The notes below the pieces were generated by a model. It saw nothing but the letters and a program-made list of their open reading frames with translations, ran no database searches and had not been told where the DNA came from. A stretch of DNA of 38,962 nucleotides from an uncultured Bdellovibrionales bacterium (GTDB lineage Bacteria; Patescibacteriota; Minisyncoccia; Moranbacterales; GWC2-37-73): the NCBI GenBank assembly GCA_964485555.1, contig CAZAJN010000033.1, forward strand, positions 1 through 38,962, in the 5' to 3' direction. The translations under genes and the position numbers were made by a program. This document shows, one piece after another, positions 2,893-35,968 of this stretch (position 1 is the stretch's first letter; every line of letters starts with the position of its first letter).

Positions 2893-3714
2893 CTAAATTA
2901 TAGCTCTTTTTGCTCGAATTTTACTACCAAAGAATTTACTGCCTAGAACATCAAATTTTTTTGTTAAATCAGTAGAATAAAAGTCACGCACTTTATCCTT
3001 GGTCAATATATTTTCTATTTTTGGATGTCTCAATAAATAGTCTTTCAGCTTTTTTGCCACAATTTTTTCTTCAGAAACGACGTTTATGTCTTTGCCAACA
3101 ATTTTTCTTATTCTTGATTCCAATATTCCATAGTGGGTGCATCCAAGAATAAGAGTATCTATCTTTTTATCAACCAGCGGTTTCAGATATTTTTTCAATA
3201 TAATATCGGTTATCTTTGAATCATGTTCCCCAGCTTCAACAATAGGAACGAGCAGCGGACAGGAATTTTGATATACGCACACATCGCCATCAAGCTTCAG
3301 TAATTCTCTTATGAAAGATTCTAATGAAACAGTGCTCTCGGTTGCCATGACACCAATTTTTTTATTCTTAGTTTTTGAAACAGCAAATTGAGCAGCGGGG
3401 ACTATAACACCCAACACTTTCTTGTTTGGATGATGAACTGGCAGATGTTCTTGCTGAATTCTGCGGAGAGCATCACTTGATGCAGTGTTACAAGCTAGGA
3501 TTATTAGCTCACAATTTTTACTAAACAAAAAATCTACAGCCTGCTTTGTAAATTCATAAATAATTTCCTTTGAACGAGTTCCGTAGGGTACACGAGCGGT
3601 ATCCCCCAAATAAATATAATTATATTCAGGCAATTCCTTTACAATGCCTTTCATAATATTCAATCCTCCAAACCCAGAGTCGAATATTCCGATTGATTTG
3701 TTATCTTTACCCAT
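2893..3714 (-). CDS. murI: glutamate racemase
   Basis: GIFDSGFGGL, ILACNTAS and LGCTHY catalytic-Cys motifs. I moved the start to M13 (3714) so it does not overlap 3722..4000; the ORF-track start at 3750 remains possible. Confidence 0.9.
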   Translation of the reverse strand: MGKDNKSIGIFDSGFGGLNIMKGIVKELPEYNYIYLGDTARVPYGTRSKEIIYEFTKQAVDFLFSKNCELIILACNTASSDALRRIQQEHLPVHHPNKKVLGVIVPAAQFAVSKTKNKKIGVMATESTVSLESFIRELLKLDGDVCVYQNSCPLLVPIVEAGEHDSKITDIILKKYLKPLVDKKIDTLILGCTHYGILESRIRKIVGKDINVVSEEKIVAKKLKDYLLRHPKIENILTKDKVRDFYSTDLTKKFDVLGSKFFGSKIRAKRAII

Positions 3715-6011: not shown

Positions 6012-8174
6012 TTATTTTTCTTCACCACTGCGGGTTTTGTTGATCAAATTTCGCACTTCATCCAAATTCACATTTGGACGCTGGCGGGGTTTGAATTTCT
6101 TGGGTGCGATGTGTTGCATTTGCGAAAGTGACATCGGGCGATCCTGTGGTTCATAGGTTTTGTGCTCGATTTTTCTTTGAACAGGAACGTATGGCCTAGG
6201 ATTTTGTCGGGTTTGTTGCACGCCAGTTCCGGCAGGAGTTTGCGGTGGCCTTGCCTGAGAATATTGAGGCTGTTGAGGAGCTGGAGATGCAATTGCAGGT
6301 TGAACATCAACGGTCGCTTCTTCTTGCTCTCTTTGCATTTTTCTTTCTTGGTTCAGTTTTTCCTTGGCAGTCATTCGCTGATAGTCTTTCAAGCAATCCT
6401 TGCAGAAAGTAGGACGTTTTCCGTCTGGTTGAAACGGAACTTGGATCTGATCTCCGCACATGTCACAAATCGCTTCAAACACTGGCTTTGGCGGTTCCAG
6501 CTGGTTATATTCGCCCAGATCGTCAGCGGGCGCAGGAGCGGGTTGAAAAGAGACCGGCTCTTGCATCACTTTTGAAGCCTCAGCTTGTCCTAGAGGCTCT
6601 GGCGTGCTCACAGGGGGTTTTGGAGCTTGAAATTGCGGAGTTTCGGGCTCAATTTTTTCCACCGGCTTGACCCCACTGCTGGTTTTTGGAGCAACAAATT
6701 GAGATGCGGCTGGTTGCCTTGGAGCTGTGAAAGCTGGAGCAGGTCCTTGCACTGGATTTTGAATTGAAGGCTGAGCAGGCGCAAAATTTGGATTCGCAGC
6801 TGGCGGTCGCTGATAGACAGTAGCTCCCTGATATGGAGTATTTGAATTGGTCGGTTGCGGACCGTTCACTGTTGGAAATCCTCCCACCGGCATAACGCCA
6901 GACCAGCGAGCAATCTTGTCTTCGACTTCCTCCTTGCTGGACGCATAGCGTTCACGAGAAGCGGCAATGATTTTTTCTTCATTTTCCATCGTGTCTTCAA
7001 TATAGATCGGCGGAAGAACCTGAGCAGAAAAAGCATCGCCCGCGATTCCATCAATCATGAGCTTCAGATAGATGTTATATTTCGGAAGATTGACGATATC
7101 ATTCTGCACGAACACCGGAGCAAATTCTTTTTCCAAAAATTCCGCATCAGTGGCGCCAACCCTAAATGAAATGATCGTGCCAGCATTACCGAAAATAGCG
7201 TCTCGAACTTTTTCGTCGATCTGCGTGATATACTGGTTCGCCAAAATAAGATTCAAGCGATATTTTCGAGCTTCAGACAAAATGTTTGCGAAAGATTCAG
7301 TGGCAAAGTTTTGGAATTCATCAACGTACAAATAGAAATCTTTTCGGTCTTCCTCCTTGATATCCACGCGACCCATGGCCGCCAACTGAATTTTGGTGAT
7401 CATCATGGCTCCCAAAAGTGCCCCATTGTCCTCACCGATGCGCCCCTTGGAAAGATTGATGATCAAAATCTTTTGCGTGTCCATAGCATTGCGGATGTCA
7501 AAAGATGATTGCGTCTGACCGACGATGTTTCGAATCAGTGAACTGGAAAGGAATTGTCCGACCTTGTTTTGAATCGGAGAAACGACTTCCTGCAAAACTT
7601 TGTCGCTCCATTTTGGAAATTCATCCACCCAAAATTGCCTGATCACAGGATCAGTCACTTTGTCGACGACTTTTTCTCGATATTTCTTATCAACCAAAAT
7701 TCTAGTCACGCCCAAAAGAGTGCTGCCTGGATATTCCAAAAGTGCCAAGATGGCATTACGCAGAATATACTCCAAACGAGGTCCCCAAGAATCCGCCCAA
7801 ATCTTTTTGAACACACCGATAAGTCCCGACGCCACCAAATGGCGATAGTCAGGATCGACAGATTCCATCACATTGAATGCGAGTGGAAAATTCTGATCGG
7901 CAGGATTCAAATAGATGACGTCATTGATTCGATTTGCAGGAATTGATTTCAAGAGTTTCTCAGCCGTGTCGCCGTGCGGATCGATGTAGCAGATTCCATG
8001 TCCGTTGCGGATATCTTGAACAACCAAATTCTCTAAGAGATTGGTTTTTCCCATACCGGTCTTTCCGATGATGTACATGTGACGAGTGCGGTCATCAGTC
8101 TTTATTCCAAAAACACGTTCCTGATTTCTGAAGTTTGTTTTTGCAAAAAATGCGATTTCGTTATTGTTTGACAT
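6012..8174 (-). CDS. P-loop NTPase of the TraD/TraG(VirD4) coupling-protein type, with P/Q-rich tail and C-terminal CxxC-x17-CxxC zinc ribbon
   Basis: Walker A IIGKTGMGKT and Walker B FYLYVDEFQNF, then ARKYRLNLILANQY. About 200 aa of P/Q/A-rich low complexity follows. The ribbon is CDMCGDQIQVPFQPDGKRPTFCKDC (nt 6393-6467), followed by a basic tail. No TM segment. Confidence 0.75.
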   Translation of the reverse strand: MSNNNEIAFFAKTNFRNQERVFGIKTDDRTRHMYIIGKTGMGKTNLLENLVVQDIRNGHGICYIDPHGDTAEKLLKSIPANRINDVIYLNPADQNFPLAFNVMESVDPDYRHLVASGLIGVFKKIWADSWGPRLEYILRNAILALLEYPGSTLLGVTRILVDKKYREKVVDKVTDPVIRQFWVDEFPKWSDKVLQEVVSPIQNKVGQFLSSSLIRNIVGQTQSSFDIRNAMDTQKILIINLSKGRIGEDNGALLGAMMITKIQLAAMGRVDIKEEDRKDFYLYVDEFQNFATESFANILSEARKYRLNLILANQYITQIDEKVRDAIFGNAGTIISFRVGATDAEFLEKEFAPVFVQNDIVNLPKYNIYLKLMIDGIAGDAFSAQVLPPIYIEDTMENEEKIIAASRERYASSKEEVEDKIARWSGVMPVGGFPTVNGPQPTNSNTPYQGATVYQRPPAANPNFAPAQPSIQNPVQGPAPAFTAPRQPAASQFVAPKTSSGVKPVEKIEPETPQFQAPKPPVSTPEPLGQAEASKVMQEPVSFQPAPAPADDLGEYNQLEPPKPVFEAICDMCGDQIQVPFQPDGKRPTFCKDCLKDYQRMTAKEKLNQERKMQREQEEATVDVQPAIASPAPQQPQYSQARPPQTPAGTGVQQTRQNPRPYVPVQRKIEHKTYEPQDRPMSLSQMQHIAPKKFKPRQRPNVNLDEVRNLINKTRSGEEK

Positions 8175-13511: not shown

Positions 13512-13602
13512 TTTTAGCTTCTTAGCTTCTTAACTTCTTAGCTTTTTAGCTCAGGGAATTTTAATTTCCTAAAAAGCTAGAAAGCTAAAGCCTAAAAAGC
13601 TG
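13512..13602. repeat. octamer-armed inverted repeat between pheS and pheT
   Basis: TTTTAGCT TCTTAGCT TCTTAACT TCTTAGCT TTTTAGCT (13512-13551), then a central small hairpin AGGGAAT…ATTTCCT, then AAAAAGCT AGAAAGCT AAAGCCTA AAAAGCT in inverted sense. Confidence 0.75.
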
Positions 13603-17180: not shown

Positions 17181-17321
17181 ATTTTTGTGATTTAAGTTAT
17201 TATTTTAAATCCAAATTTCAAAATCTCAATGTCAAATAAAATCTCAATAATTCAAGTCTAAAAAAATTGGATTTTGGTCATTTATTTGACATTCGTCATT
17301 TGGATTTGAGATTTTTAATGG

Positions 17322-18384: not shown

Positions 18385-20055
18385 TTAATCCGATTTTATA
18401 TCGGATTTACGTACTCCTACCATCCAAGTCCTGCCATGGATCCAGTCACTTATGATGAATCTGAGCATGGTGCGGGTGATGACGACTGCTGTAAACATCG
18501 ACACCACCACTCCGATGAAAAGTGAGGCAGCAAATCCTTTGACGAAACCTGTACCCATGAGATACAAGATTCCAGCAGTCAAAAGAGAGGAAACATTTCC
18601 GTCGCGAATCGAGGTCCAGGCACGTTTGAATCCTTCTTCCAATGAATTTGCGATCGTCCTGCCATTTCTTATTTCCTCTTTTGTTCTTTCAAAAATCAGA
18701 ATGTTGGCATCAACAGCCATCCCGATGGACAAGACAAAACCGGCAATTCCTGAAAGTGTCAGAGTAATTCCAGTAAATTTGAAAATAGTGATCATGAGCG
18801 CAGTGTAAATAAGAAGCGCCAAAGATGCCACAAGTCCCAGGAATCGATAGAAGATCAACATGAAAACAATGACAGCACCAAGACCTATCGCGCCAGCTAT
18901 AAGACTTTTATTGAGCGAATCTTGCCCCAGGGAAGCCTCCACGCTTTGCTGTGAAACCAACGTAAGTGGGACAGGCAATGCACCTGTATTCAATTTTTGA
19001 ACCAACTCCTTGGCTTCCTCCAAAGCAAAATTTCCAGTAATGACAGCTTCTCCATTGGTGATTTCGGATTGCACGGTTGGAGCACTAATAATGCTTCCAT
19101 CCAAAAGTATGGCTATCGTCTTTCCAAGATTAGCCTTGGTAAGTTCAGAAAACAGTTTGGTTCCTTCATCGTCAAACTGCAATGAAATTTGCGGCTCTCC
19201 CAGACCTTGACTTTGAAAAGTCACCGTTGCATTTTTCAAATTCTTACCAGTAAGCCCGGTGCCTTTGTATTTAAGTTCGGGATATTGATCCAGAGAAGTT
19301 TTTGGCAGCAAGATGTGAGCTGAGTGAACTTCCTTGTCCTCCCCCTCCCCGCGCGATTCTACAAATTTTATGATGTGCCAACCGAAATCTGACTCAACCA
19401 GCTCCGGATGGATTTCCCCAGGCTTAAGATTTTTTTCAAATAAAACCTGGTCAAATTCTGGCACAAATGTTCCCTTTTTGACGAAATCCAAATCTCCACC
19501 CTTTTCTTTTGAGCCAGAATCCTGACTGTTTTCCTTGGCCAATTCTTCAAAATTTCCTCCCTTTTTGATTTGATCAAGCAATTGAGCAGCTTTTTCTTTT
19601 GATTGCTGGTTTTGAGAATCAAGCATCTGTTGGATCTGTGGATCTACGCCTTCTTCTTTGAATTCAAGCAAGGGAGTTCCTTTGATCTGTTGTTTGGCTT
19701 GTTCAATGTCCTTTATGCCTGGTATTTCTATGACAACTCGGTTTTCATCCCCGCTTTTTGTAGTATAAACCAACGGCTCACCCACACCAAAAGCATTTAT
19801 GCGCCTTTCAATGACATCCTGAACACCTTCCAATGCCTCGCCAACCTTAGATTGGTCGATGCCTGACACATCAGCCTTGTATTCCAGATGGCTGCCACCT
19901 TGCAGGTCAAGCCCCAGATTTATCTTGAACTTATTCAAAACGTCATATAATGCAGGAACTTTGCTGACTGATTGAGGATAGGAAACAAGTCCGGCAAACA
20001 AAGCCAGGACAACAATGGCACCAAACTTCAATTGAATTTTTTTCTTATTGTTCAT
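18385..20055 (-). CDS. secD: protein translocase subunit SecD with inserted parvulin-like segment
   Basis: The GMAVDANILIFERTKEE TM core is present. I trimmed the ORF-track start (20334) to the ATG at 20055 (MNNKKKIQLKFGAIVVLALFAGLV, the signal-anchor). The discarded 93 codons cover a promoter, a terminator and a structured element. Confidence 0.9.
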   Translation of the reverse strand: MNNKKKIQLKFGAIVVLALFAGLVSYPQSVSKVPALYDVLNKFKINLGLDLQGGSHLEYKADVSGIDQSKVGEALEGVQDVIERRINAFGVGEPLVYTTKSGDENRVVIEIPGIKDIEQAKQQIKGTPLLEFKEEGVDPQIQQMLDSQNQQSKEKAAQLLDQIKKGGNFEELAKENSQDSGSKEKGGDLDFVKKGTFVPEFDQVLFEKNLKPGEIHPELVESDFGWHIIKFVESRGEGEDKEVHSAHILLPKTSLDQYPELKYKGTGLTGKNLKNATVTFQSQGLGEPQISLQFDDEGTKLFSELTKANLGKTIAILLDGSIISAPTVQSEITNGEAVITGNFALEEAKELVQKLNTGALPVPLTLVSQQSVEASLGQDSLNKSLIAGAIGLGAVIVFMLIFYRFLGLVASLALLIYTALMITIFKFTGITLTLSGIAGFVLSIGMAVDANILIFERTKEEIRNGRTIANSLEEGFKRAWTSIRDGNVSSLLTAGILYLMGTGFVKGFAASLFIGVVVSMFTAVVITRTMLRFIISDWIHGRTWMVGVRKSDIKSD

Positions 20056-20084
20056 CCGGTATGCATAAAATATTAATATCACTA

Positions 20085-20113
20085 ATAATACTAAACAAAC
20101 ATTGATTTTGCAA
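20085..20113 (-). promoter_or_regulatory. putative secD promoter
   Basis: Minus strand reads TTGCAA (20113-20108), N17, TATTAT (20090-20085). These are the same hexamers as the tyrS promoter. About 30 nt upstream of the ATG at 20055. Confidence 0.5.
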
Positions 20114-20117
20114 TACT

Positions 20118-20143
20118 GACAAAAAATACCCTCGAAGGTATTT
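20118..20143 (-). terminator. putative (bidirectional) intrinsic terminator
   Basis: AAATACC-ctcgaa-GGTATTT (20124-20143) with an A-run on one side and a T-run on the other. The stem is AT-rich and therefore weak. Confidence 0.4.
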
Positions 20144-20170
20144 CTTTTTGTAACACGTAGAAATATTTTT

Positions 20171-20352
20171 GACTTACGCGTTTGAAATGGATTCTGTTTT
20201 CTGCTGGCATGCACGTTTTCTTTTGAGGCAACAGCGAGCTCCGCCAGCTGGCGGAAGCGAGGTCTTAGCTCTTGATCATTAACTCCTTGATCAAGAGCGT
20301 GCCGAAAAAGGAAATGTGCATGCCAGTTCATCATCTTTCAAGCGCGTAGGTC
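20171..20352. ncRNA. candidate structured RNA / nested palindromic element (strand unresolved)
   Basis: Hand-traced helices: 20171-20187/20336-20352 (17 bp), 20204-20224/20306-20326 (21 bp), 20227-20230/20300-20303, and 20268-20278/20288-20298 (11 bp). See the finding for detail. Confidence 0.45.
20240..20255. repeat. 16-nt palindrome TCCGCCAGCTGGCGGA (family copy 1)
   Basis: Perfect palindrome, flanked by AGCGAG (20233-20238) and AGCGAG (20256-20261). Confidence 0.85.
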
Positions 20353-20359
20353 CTAATTC

Positions 20360-20587
20360 TCACTCTGCCAACAGTGATTCGATTTCATTCCACCTCAATT
20401 CCAAAGAACGCTTAAGTTGTTCCAGATCTTCATCCTCGGAATAAAAACCGTAACTCTTCTTTTCTTCAATCAGAACATCAATCAAATCTTTATATTCATC
20501 AAAACTGCGAACGTCTTCCGCCCGTACCTGCCTCAACAATTCGTGGAAAAGATTTTCTGAAGAATACTCTGCGCCTGTGTAAGTCAT
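20360..20587 (-). CDS. hypothetical acidic small protein (75 aa)
   Basis: Co-oriented ORF, E/D-rich and helical. No family recognised. Confidence 0.5.
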   Translation of the reverse strand: MTYTGAEYSSENLFHELLRQVRAEDVRSFDEYKDLIDVLIEEKKSYGFYSEDEDLEQLKRSLELRWNEIESLLAE

Positions 20588-20624
20588 AAGAATAAATATT
20601 ACAATTTACACAGTGTAATACTGA

Positions 20625-21107
20625 TCATATCTGTTGATTCTTTCTTTTCTTGATGATAGCATCAGCTGAGCGCAGGACATTTTTTGAACCATCATTTTTA
20701 ATGTTGATGCGCTTATACGCCTGATCAAAAGTGAGCCAAGCGAAATCATTGTTTTCAAAATCTATTATAACATTTTCATTTTCTGTTTTAACAGCATAAA
20801 AAACTGCCTTTTTGAAAATATAAATGCCCCTTCCCTCCCTGATCCGTTCTTTTTTTTCATTGCCTTTGGCTGTATAAAAATATCGGACAGGCATGCGAAA
20901 AGCCGGGAGAATTTCAAGATCATCAAGTCCTGTTTCTTCTTGAACTTCGCGTCTGAGTGTCTGCTGCTCTGTTTCGCCTTCTTCCACATGACCTTTGGGA
21001 AAATCCCATTGCCAAGATCGATAGCGCACCAAAAGATACAAGATTTTTTCATCTCGAATTCTATAAACAACCCCGCCTACAGATTTTTCAAAAGATATAT
21101 ATTTCAT
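20625..21107 (-). CDS. Nudix hydrolase
   Basis: Nudix box GHVEEGETEQQTLRREVQEETGL. Confidence 0.85.
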   Translation of the reverse strand: MKYISFEKSVGGVVYRIRDEKILYLLVRYRSWQWDFPKGHVEEGETEQQTLRREVQEETGLDDLEILPAFRMPVRYFYTAKGNEKKERIREGRGIYIFKKAVFYAVKTENENVIIDFENNDFAWLTFDQAYKRINIKNDGSKNVLRSADAIIKKRKNQQI

Positions 21108-24591: not shown

Positions 24592-24702
24592 CTACTATCT
24601 TCAGCTAATTTATGACGTAAAGGCTTATTTAGAAGCAAAAATGCAAAAAGCTCGCAAGCACTGTAGAGTTAAAAAGAAGGCTCTCGCCTTCTTTTTAACT
24701 CT
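24592..24702 (+). ncRNA. candidate ~100-nt sRNA (promoter-to-terminator unit without a credible ORF)
   Basis: The predicted TSS is about 7 nt after the -10 box. The unit ends at a perfect 17-bp hairpin at 24665-24702 (AGAGTTAAAAAGAAGGC-tctc-GCCTTCTTTTTAACTCT). Its GC core GAAGGC/GCCTTC is flanked by A5 and T5, so it could terminate in both directions. Confidence 0.4.
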
Positions 24703-24786: not shown

Positions 24787-24802
24787 TCCGCCAACTGGCG
24801 GA
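24787..24802. repeat. 16-nt palindrome TCCGCCAACTGGCGGA (family copy 2)
   Basis: Flanked by CTAATAAGCT (24775-24784) and CTAAGAAGCT (24803-24812). Confidence 0.85.
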
Positions 24803-25209: not shown

Positions 25210-25225
25210 TCCGCCAACTGGCGGA
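25210..25225. repeat. 16-nt palindrome TCCGCCAACTGGCGGA (family copy 3)
   Basis: Flanked by CGAACCTACGAA (25195-25206) and CGAATCTACGAA (25227-25238). Confidence 0.85.
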
Positions 25226-26269: not shown

Positions 26270-26285
26270 TCCACCAACTGGCGGA
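26270..26285. repeat. 16-nt palindrome family copy 4 (TCCACCAACTGGCGGA, one substitution)
   Basis: Lies between the ATPase stop and the murB start. Here the flanks are inverted (ACATAT…ATATGT) rather than direct. Confidence 0.7.
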
Positions 26286-35892: not shown

Positions 35893-35968
35893 GAATTATG
35901 AATTATGAATTATGAATTATGAAAATGCAAATCATACTTAATTCATGATTCATGCTTCATAATTCATC
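35893..35968. repeat. heptamer-armed inverted repeat between ftsW and murG
   Basis: GAATTAT x4 (35893-35920) plus GAAAATG, a 13-nt spacer, then ATTCATG ATTCATG CTTCATA ATTCATC (35941-35968). Confidence 0.8.

Follow-up and report, generated by a model that had tools for sequence, protein, structure and literature searches.

A nested palindromic element between a small conserved gene and secD in a Candidatus Moranbacteria contig

REPINs are long hairpins formed from two inverted REPs, and the target duplication of Correia elements is TA. The literature on these repeats describes Correia elements as binding RNase III and as being either cleaved or protected by it (PMC2649163). REPINs are presented as a family of miniature mobile DNA (PMC3116915), and REPs are thought to stabilize mRNA (PMC3733652). 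Here, we describe a nested palindromic element of 182 bp, located upstream of secD at positions 20171-20352 of contig CAZAJN010000033.1 (assembly GCA_964485555.1). The whole stretch of 38,962 nt that was analyzed is referred to as the window. SecD homologs place the window, a Rifle-aquifer contig (ACD_56C00035 / AMFJ01), in Candidatus Moranbacteria (Patescibacteria, also known as Candidate Phyla Radiation, CPR). We lean, with some caution, towards the view that the element is a young non-coding insertion of the MITE (miniature inverted-repeat transposable element) or REPIN kind, which is passively transcribed in a 3' untranslated region (3' UTR). This view is based on conserved termini around a variable interior, patchy presence, youth, foreign composition, the lack of coding capacity and of an Rfam match, and a nested hairpin that is itself repeated. 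In this view, the element is neither an independent RNA gene nor a new RNA class.

Correia elements (CREE) from Neisseria, ERIC/IRU from enterobacteria and bcr1 from Bacillus resemble the element in being non-coding, 100-200 bp long and bounded by terminal inverted repeats. They also are intergenic, are found near gene ends, and vary in presence between close relatives. As described in two sources, they are co-transcribed as a long hairpin, which is a possible RNase III target (PMC2649163, PMC10969869); the MITE/REPIN kind has been reviewed (PMC10969869, PMC3116915). However, such families comprise tens to hundreds of copies in a genome, with defined target duplications, whereas one copy of the element per genome was seen, without a duplication. 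The two members found here have only their termini of 14-15 nt in common, and there is no known partner transposase.

REPINs and REP/BIME repeats share other traits with the element. They are long imperfect hairpins composed of smaller GC-rich palindromes, and they are located just past stop codons within transcription units. According to two sources, a target duplication is not expected for them (PMC3116915, PMC3733652). An inner 16-nt hairpin of the element is REP-like in that it has four copies in 39 kb, all of them extragenic, with two of the three free copies 6-12 nt past a stop codon. One end of RAYT-type REPs is described as bearing a GTAG or CGTC tag (PMC3733652), but none is found beside the four copies of the small hairpin. 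Also, the large element does not have two copies of this hairpin as its arms, and the window has no RAYT gene.

The attC sites of integrons are imperfect palindromes directly downstream of a small open reading frame (ORF), as is the element, and single-strand folding would matter for them. This candidate was rejected: the ends lack R'' and R' core sites (RYYYAAC ... GTTRRRY), the gene upstream is syntenic where present and is not a cassette, and there is no integrase nearby or elsewhere in the window. Also rejected were a retron msr-msd (no adjacent reverse transcriptase gene) and a plasmid single-strand origin (no plasmid context).

Structure of the element and its occurrence at the secD locus

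The element was delimited by folds, by inverted repeats and by comparison of its spacer with those of relatives. It consists of the following parts.

20171..20352: the whole nested palindromic element (182 bp)
20171..20187: left arm of the outer helix P1, a terminal inverted repeat (GACTTACGCGTTTGAAA), the first 14 nt of which match the family terminus GACYTRCGYRYTTG
20188..20203: asymmetric internal loop (from the sequence and the folds), with 16 nt here and 9 nt at 20327-20335
20204..20230: left arm of helix P2, with 21 pairs, a 2x2 mismatch and then GGCA (20227-20230)
20233..20261: small GC-rich hairpin region, with the 16-nt TCCGCCAGCTGGCGGA at 20240-20255 and AGCGAG at 20233-20238 and 20256-20261
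20268..20298: apical hairpin, 20268-20278 pairing with 20288-20298 (11 of 11 pairs) around a 9-nt loop
20300..20326: right arm of P2, 20306-20326 pairing with 20204-20224, and TGCC at 20300-20303
20336..20352: right arm of P1, a terminal inverted repeat (reverse complement GACCTACGCGCTTGAAA)

The helices, the palindrome at the center and the AGCGAG repeats on either side of it were all found exactly where a first-pass annotation, made from the letters of the sequence, had placed them. According to inverted-repeat analysis, the 17 pairs of P1 comprise 15 Watson-Crick and two T:G pairs, and the 21 pairs of P2 comprise 19 and two, respectively. Over all stems, 49 of 53 positions (92%) are Watson-Crick. 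In the four others, as had been noticed, the plus strand has G:T and the minus strand A:C, but a polarity of four out of four corresponds to a two-sided p of only 0.125. The sizes of the asymmetric loop (16 and 9 nt) were also correct, while its description as a bubble was not entirely so, as RNAfold pairs part of it. A second internal loop is asymmetric as well (15 versus 1 nt). In both loops, neither side is a decayed complement of the other. A stretch of 15 nt on the 3' side of the larger loop (20321-20335) is identical to window positions 3429-3443, within the coding sequence of an Asp/Glu racemase; this match is probably due to chance (about 0.01 such matches are expected).

Folding of both strands, a check that the first-pass annotation had proposed, gave results far beyond chance on each. 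The plus-strand RNA folds with -96.8 kcal/mol (z = -9.2) and the minus-strand RNA with -76.0 kcal/mol (z = -7.2); for the DNA folds, z is -7.9 (plus) and -6.2 (minus). None of 200 dinucleotide shuffles reaches the fold of the element on either strand, be it as RNA or as DNA. The gap between the strands (about 21 kcal/mol) reflects the non-Watson-Crick pairs, which are G:U in the plus-strand RNA but A:C in the minus-strand RNA. The GC content of the element (48.9%) is above that of the window (39.9%), of other intergenic DNA (34.5%) and of the rest of its own spacer (24%).

The gene-proximal 75 nt of the element are also found in an independent assembly, made by Logan from run SRR446575 (L001), and thus the element is not peculiar to one assembler. 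The unitig (L001:1543-1617) breaks off precisely at the 3' end of the apical loop. This break could result from low coverage or from a population variant, such as an inversion of the loop. When a population variant devoid of the element was sought, the Logan contig with SecF was found to end before secD.

The neighborhood of the element consists of housekeeping genes, all of them on the minus strand (secA, a fibronectin-type-III-like ORF, a NUDIX gene, a conserved 75-aa ORF, secD and secF). The features closest to the element are as follows.

20360..20587, minus strand: conserved 75-aa gene, function unassigned, with the element in its 3' UTR
20118..20143, minus strand: intrinsic terminator of the NUDIX/75-aa operon (hairpin plus T-run)
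20085..20113, minus strand: secD promoter TTGCAA-17-TATTAT, with the TTGCAAAA box conserved in relatives
18385..20058, minus strand: secD, with its true start (MNNKKK) at 20058

Read on the minus strand, the 75-aa gene ends with its stop codon at 20362-20360, which is followed by 7 nt, the element, 29 nt, the terminator (20143-20118) and the secD promoter (20113-20085). The element is thus inside the 3' UTR of the upstream operon, because it is between the 75-aa stop codon and the operon terminator. The terminator position is conserved in all relatives that have a gene of the 75-aa family. This bears out the minus-strand context that had been described, consisting of a stop codon, a hairpin with a T-run and the secD promoter, together with the 3'-UTR placement. 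Adjacency to the stop codon was also correctly described, but the distance is 7 nt (20353-20359) and not 8 nt. In the minus-strand transcript, the terminator folds independently beside the element. The element itself is not an intrinsic terminator, since there is no T-run after P1 on either strand and the actual terminator is another, separate hairpin (20143-20118). Consensus scans found no sigma-70-type promoter on the plus strand, and no promoter belonging to the element on either strand.

The syntenic locus was compared in nine related lineages. The succession of NUDIX, 75-aa gene, spacer, secD and secF is kept in all of them except L027 (P0013 clade, SecD 80% identical to that of the window), which lacks the 75-aa gene and has a NUDIX-secD spacer of 109 nt (L027:1391-1501). 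As this gene is missing in L027, it is itself a clade-restricted addition. In seven lineages, the spacer is devoid of the element. These are L002/L019-L022 (SecD 91% identical to that of the window), L016 (88%), L004, L005 and L017 (87% each), L024 (86%) and L028 (85%). The distance from the stop codon to the terminator is about 12-35 nt in six of them; in L024, the spacer has a total of 116 nt. The corresponding distance in the window is 7 + 182 + 29 nt. When the 182 nt are subtracted, 36 nt remain at the site, and the architecture is the same as in L002. The element is therefore an insertion relative to its nearest relatives. The spacers are too diverged for an exact reconstruction of the empty site.

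In relatives, the 5' UTR of secD is a hot spot for insertions and deletions, with unrelated insertions or duplications in L004 (940-1200), L005 (968-1050) and L002 (3860-3950). L004 contains extra copies of the secD ribosome-binding and start region (gaatttctactaccggatgaat), which alternate in orientation and form hairpins. The insert in L005 is about 80 nt long, rich in hairpins and flanked by TAAT.

A second member was found in L025 and L026, which originate from independent sequencing runs, have identical sequences, and code for a SecD that is 84% identical to that of the window. It is a long hairpin of about 147 nt (L025:1254-1400, also in L026), located after the stop codon of the small ORF and before the terminator. 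The site is thus occupied in the window and in L025/L026 but empty in seven lineages. The hairpin folds with z = -7.7 and -7.2, and a sensitive Rfam search did not return a match for it. Its termini, GGACTTGCGTATTTG ... CAAACACGCAAGTCC, can be aligned with the two arms of P1 in the window element. They are identical at 11 of 15 positions, all differences being transitions, and the consensus is GGACYTRCGYRYTTG. The termini begin with GACYTRCG (the profile may also be written as AATTWGGACYTRCGYRYTTG), and both elements have an AATTW prefix on the gene-proximal side. Between the two elements, P1 has two compensatory changes (A-T to G-C and C-G to T-A). The interior of the L025 element is multi-branched, with three hairpins, and cannot be aligned with that of the window element (z < 2).

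G:U polarity is mixed in the L025 element, with one such pair on each strand. Pooling both members results in five of six on the plus strand, which is not significant, so that the strand argument drawn from the window element has been weakened. Deamination on the exposed or non-template strand was tried as a source of this polarity; it predicts the opposite, but four to six positions are too few for a conclusion.

A neighbor-joining tree of SecD has the topology ((L025, L028), ((window, L002), (L004/L005/L016/L017 clade))), L024 falling outside. For both carriers, the site is empty in the sister lineage (L002 for the window, L028 for L025), and two gains therefore require fewer events than one gain and three losses. 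The window and L002, its closest relative, are identical at 31% of four-fold degenerate sites, which corresponds to saturation. Complementarity would no longer be seen in a neutral palindrome that predates the separation of the window and L002. Because neutral sites are saturated and yet the stems are 92% Watson-Crick, the palindrome must have arisen long after this separation, or it must be actively maintained.

The only open frame in the element is a run-on into secD, which is absent in relatives. A HMMER search with this frame against 1.84 billion representative proteins returned no homolog (three weak matches to long repeat proteins). Rfam 15, a check which had also been proposed, assigned 0 families to the whole window when gathering thresholds were applied. 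In sensitive mode, a region of 801 nt (19900-20700) had only chance matches (E > 0.4), and 6S RNA was not among them at E up to 10. No known family was thus matched. An earlier suggestion of a 6S-like or conserved structured RNA gene is not supported in view of this result, of the absence from seven lineages and of the lack of a plus-strand promoter.

Origin and possible role of the element

Three characteristics of MITEs are observed in the element: it has terminal inverted repeats, it is small and non-coding, and its presence is variable at orthologous sites. We infer mobility rather than observe it, because further copies, a target-site duplication and a transposase were not found. If the element is of the MITE or REPIN kind, its termini (GGACYTRCGYRYTTG and the complement) would be the part recognized by the mobilizing machinery, while the interior would be free to vary. 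Mobilization would occur in trans, by a transposase. Being upstream of the terminator, the element would be passively transcribed on the minus strand within the NUDIX/75-aa mRNA and would form a long hairpin of about -76 kcal/mol. We speculate that this hairpin could serve as a substrate for RNase III or as a barrier to 3' exonucleases, as is the case for known bacterial palindromic repeats (shown for Correia elements, PMC2649163; proposed for REPs, PMC3733652).

A number of results weigh against a mobile element. The large element appears to be single-copy in the data searched. No second copy of it or of its termini, with up to three mismatches allowed, was found in the 39-kb window or in about 160 kb of related Moranbacteria loci. 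Scans of larger collections required exact words and are thus insensitive to diverged copies. With this limit, the 21-mer of P2 had four single-arm chance matches in JGI metagenomes (a collection which does not include the source contig), a gapped P1...P1' pattern had two unrelated matches in GTDB representative genomes, and six exact-pattern scans of IMG/VR returned four chance matches in high-GC coding DNA. A blastn search against phages and plasmids gave no match. The window does not code for a transposase, RAYT, integrase or reverse transcriptase; for the latter, no domain was detected in any ORF of at least 100 aa. Neither member has a clear target-site duplication, AATT being present at both ends in L025 and at one end in the window. 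Two independent insertions into one spacer of about 35 nt would require a strong target preference, the alternative being an ancestral element that was maintained. Finally, the two compensatory changes in P1 are equally compatible with a selected RNA helix and with terminal repeats that co-evolve.

Some of these points would be accounted for by a locus-specific structured RNA under selection, either a 3'-UTR hairpin (minus strand) or an antisense RNA (plus strand), which is ancestral to the window and L025 and was repeatedly lost. Both carriers hold their element in the same spacer, both members have a very stable fold, and P1 was kept, with two compensatory pairs, despite saturated neutral sites. 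In addition, all four mismatches in the window are G:U on the plus strand, with about 21 kcal/mol between the strands. We nevertheless consider this RNA unlikely, although it is the main rival to a mobile insertion. At least three losses are needed to explain its absence from seven lineages, which include the sister of each carrier. The interiors of the two members are unrelated in length and sequence, and the long, near-perfect helices resemble young DNA palindromes more than RNA helices shaped by evolution. On the plus strand, no promoter was found and a bidirectional-looking terminator is located just upstream, and the polarity of the G:U pairs in L025 is mixed. The covariation observed in P1 is reached by 123 of 500 shuffles and, coming from two sequences, has no statistical weight or power. 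An improbable explanation is that the palindrome was made locally, by template switching or inverted duplication in replication or repair, and has neither mobility nor function. It would fit with an apparent single copy in all data searched, with the lack of a target-site duplication and a transposase, and with a spacer that is an indel hot spot in L004, L005 and L002. However, no source sequence for the arms is found in the window, an element with 49% GC is in a spacer with 24% GC, the internal loops are not decayed complements, and matching termini in a second lineage are not expected from two independent accidents.

Two further explanations can hardly be correct. The helices of 6S RNA are frequently interrupted. 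With about 180 nt (182 nt in the element), a rod shape and an asymmetric internal loop (16/9 nt), the element is reminiscent of this RNA (RF00013 and related families), which mimics an open promoter, and a 6S RNA or a functional analog had to be considered. The lack of a match to the covariance models refutes family membership. Moreover, the element is not conserved in the syntenic spacer of close relatives, has no promoter of its own and is inside a 3' UTR, its helices are near-perfect, and the L025 interior is multi-branched instead of having a bubble between irregular helices. The other explanation is an artifact of assembly or amplification, specifically a chimeric inverted duplication. 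The source is a short-read metagenome assembly from 2012, and the Logan contig from the same run breaks in the apical loop, but we attach very little probability to this possibility. The arms differ at four positions and by two asymmetric loops, whereas artifactual fold-backs copy the adjacent sequence exactly. Also, in the Logan assembly, 75 nt of the element are independently linked to the 75-aa gene, and a related element is identical in two other runs (L025 and L026).

A bolder proposal, which we put forward tentatively and regard as doubtful, is that of an undescribed palindrome family of Patescibacteria (CPR) with 15-nt termini (GGACYTRCGYRYTTG), of which the window and L025 elements would be the first two members. 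This family would either home to the gap between stop codon and terminator of one operon, or represent a selected and repeatedly lost hairpin (3' UTR or antisense). In either case, its loops would collect a genome-specific 16-nt hairpin, possibly with flanking duplications of variable length.

The inner 16-nt hairpin and other features of the window

The 16-nt GC-rich hairpin at the center of the element, TCCGCCA(A/G)CTGGCGGA (the motif may also be written as TCCGCCARYTGGCGGA), has four copies in the window, while none is expected by chance.

20240-20255: copy 1, inside the large element (TCCGCCAGCTGGCGGA)
24787..24802: copy 2, free-standing (TCCGCCAACTGGCGGA), 12 nt after the hpf stop codon
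25210..25225: copy 3, free-standing, in the murB-hpf spacer, flanked by 12-nt direct repeats with one mismatch
26270..26285: copy 4, free-standing (TCCACCAACTGGCGGA), 6 nt after the stop codon of a P-type ATPase gene

The window has about nine short GC-rich intergenic hairpins, of which these copies make up four, and the three free copies share one orientation. The motif is absent from all related loci that were compared, including the syntenic regions of the relative with 91% SecD identity. The first-pass annotation had considered the central palindrome as a secondary insertion, and the three further intergenic copies support this. Judging from these copies, the 16-nt palindrome probably entered the larger element secondarily. 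The direct repeats that flank free copies have 10 nt at 24787 (p about 0.01) and 12 nt at 25210 (p about 0.0006). They might be target duplications of variable length or local word repeats; we do not claim a target duplication, because the spacers of this clade consist of locally repeated words.

A separate low-GC class is represented by AT-rich intergenic inverted repeats of short tandem words (GAATTAT, AGCTAAAAAGCT), which are located at 17202-17319, 35893-35967, 13530-13588, 1211-1331 and 24665-24702. The last of these, located between hpf and secA, forms a perfect hairpin of 17 bp.

Two further observations concern proteins encoded in the window. In SecD of this clade, a parvulin-type peptidyl-prolyl isomerase domain (Rotamase, PF00639/PF13616) is inserted in the periplasmic region, and this also applies to all of the more than 100 Moranbacteria homologs listed. 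A protein of 720 aa (6012-8174, minus strand), encoded amid housekeeping genes, combines TrwB/TraG-type coupling-protein and HerA-like ATPase domains with a treble-clef zinc finger.

Implications for annotation and for Moranbacteria genomes

The element exposes an annotation error. Deposited SecD proteins (EKD58894.1 with 648 aa and a 649-aa twin) start at an ATG inside the element, the extension corresponding to window positions 20059-20334 (minus strand). Relatives begin at the conserved MN(N/T)KKK, and the deposited proteins are over-extended by about 91-92 spurious N-terminal residues.

If the element is indeed an insertion of the MITE or REPIN kind, then the small, streamlined genomes of Moranbacteria (CPR) also gain MITE/REP-like palindromes. 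Such palindromes, when located in 3' UTRs, may alter mRNA processing. The presence of two different members in the same 35-nt gap of two lineages hints at target specificity, which would be of interest if confirmed.

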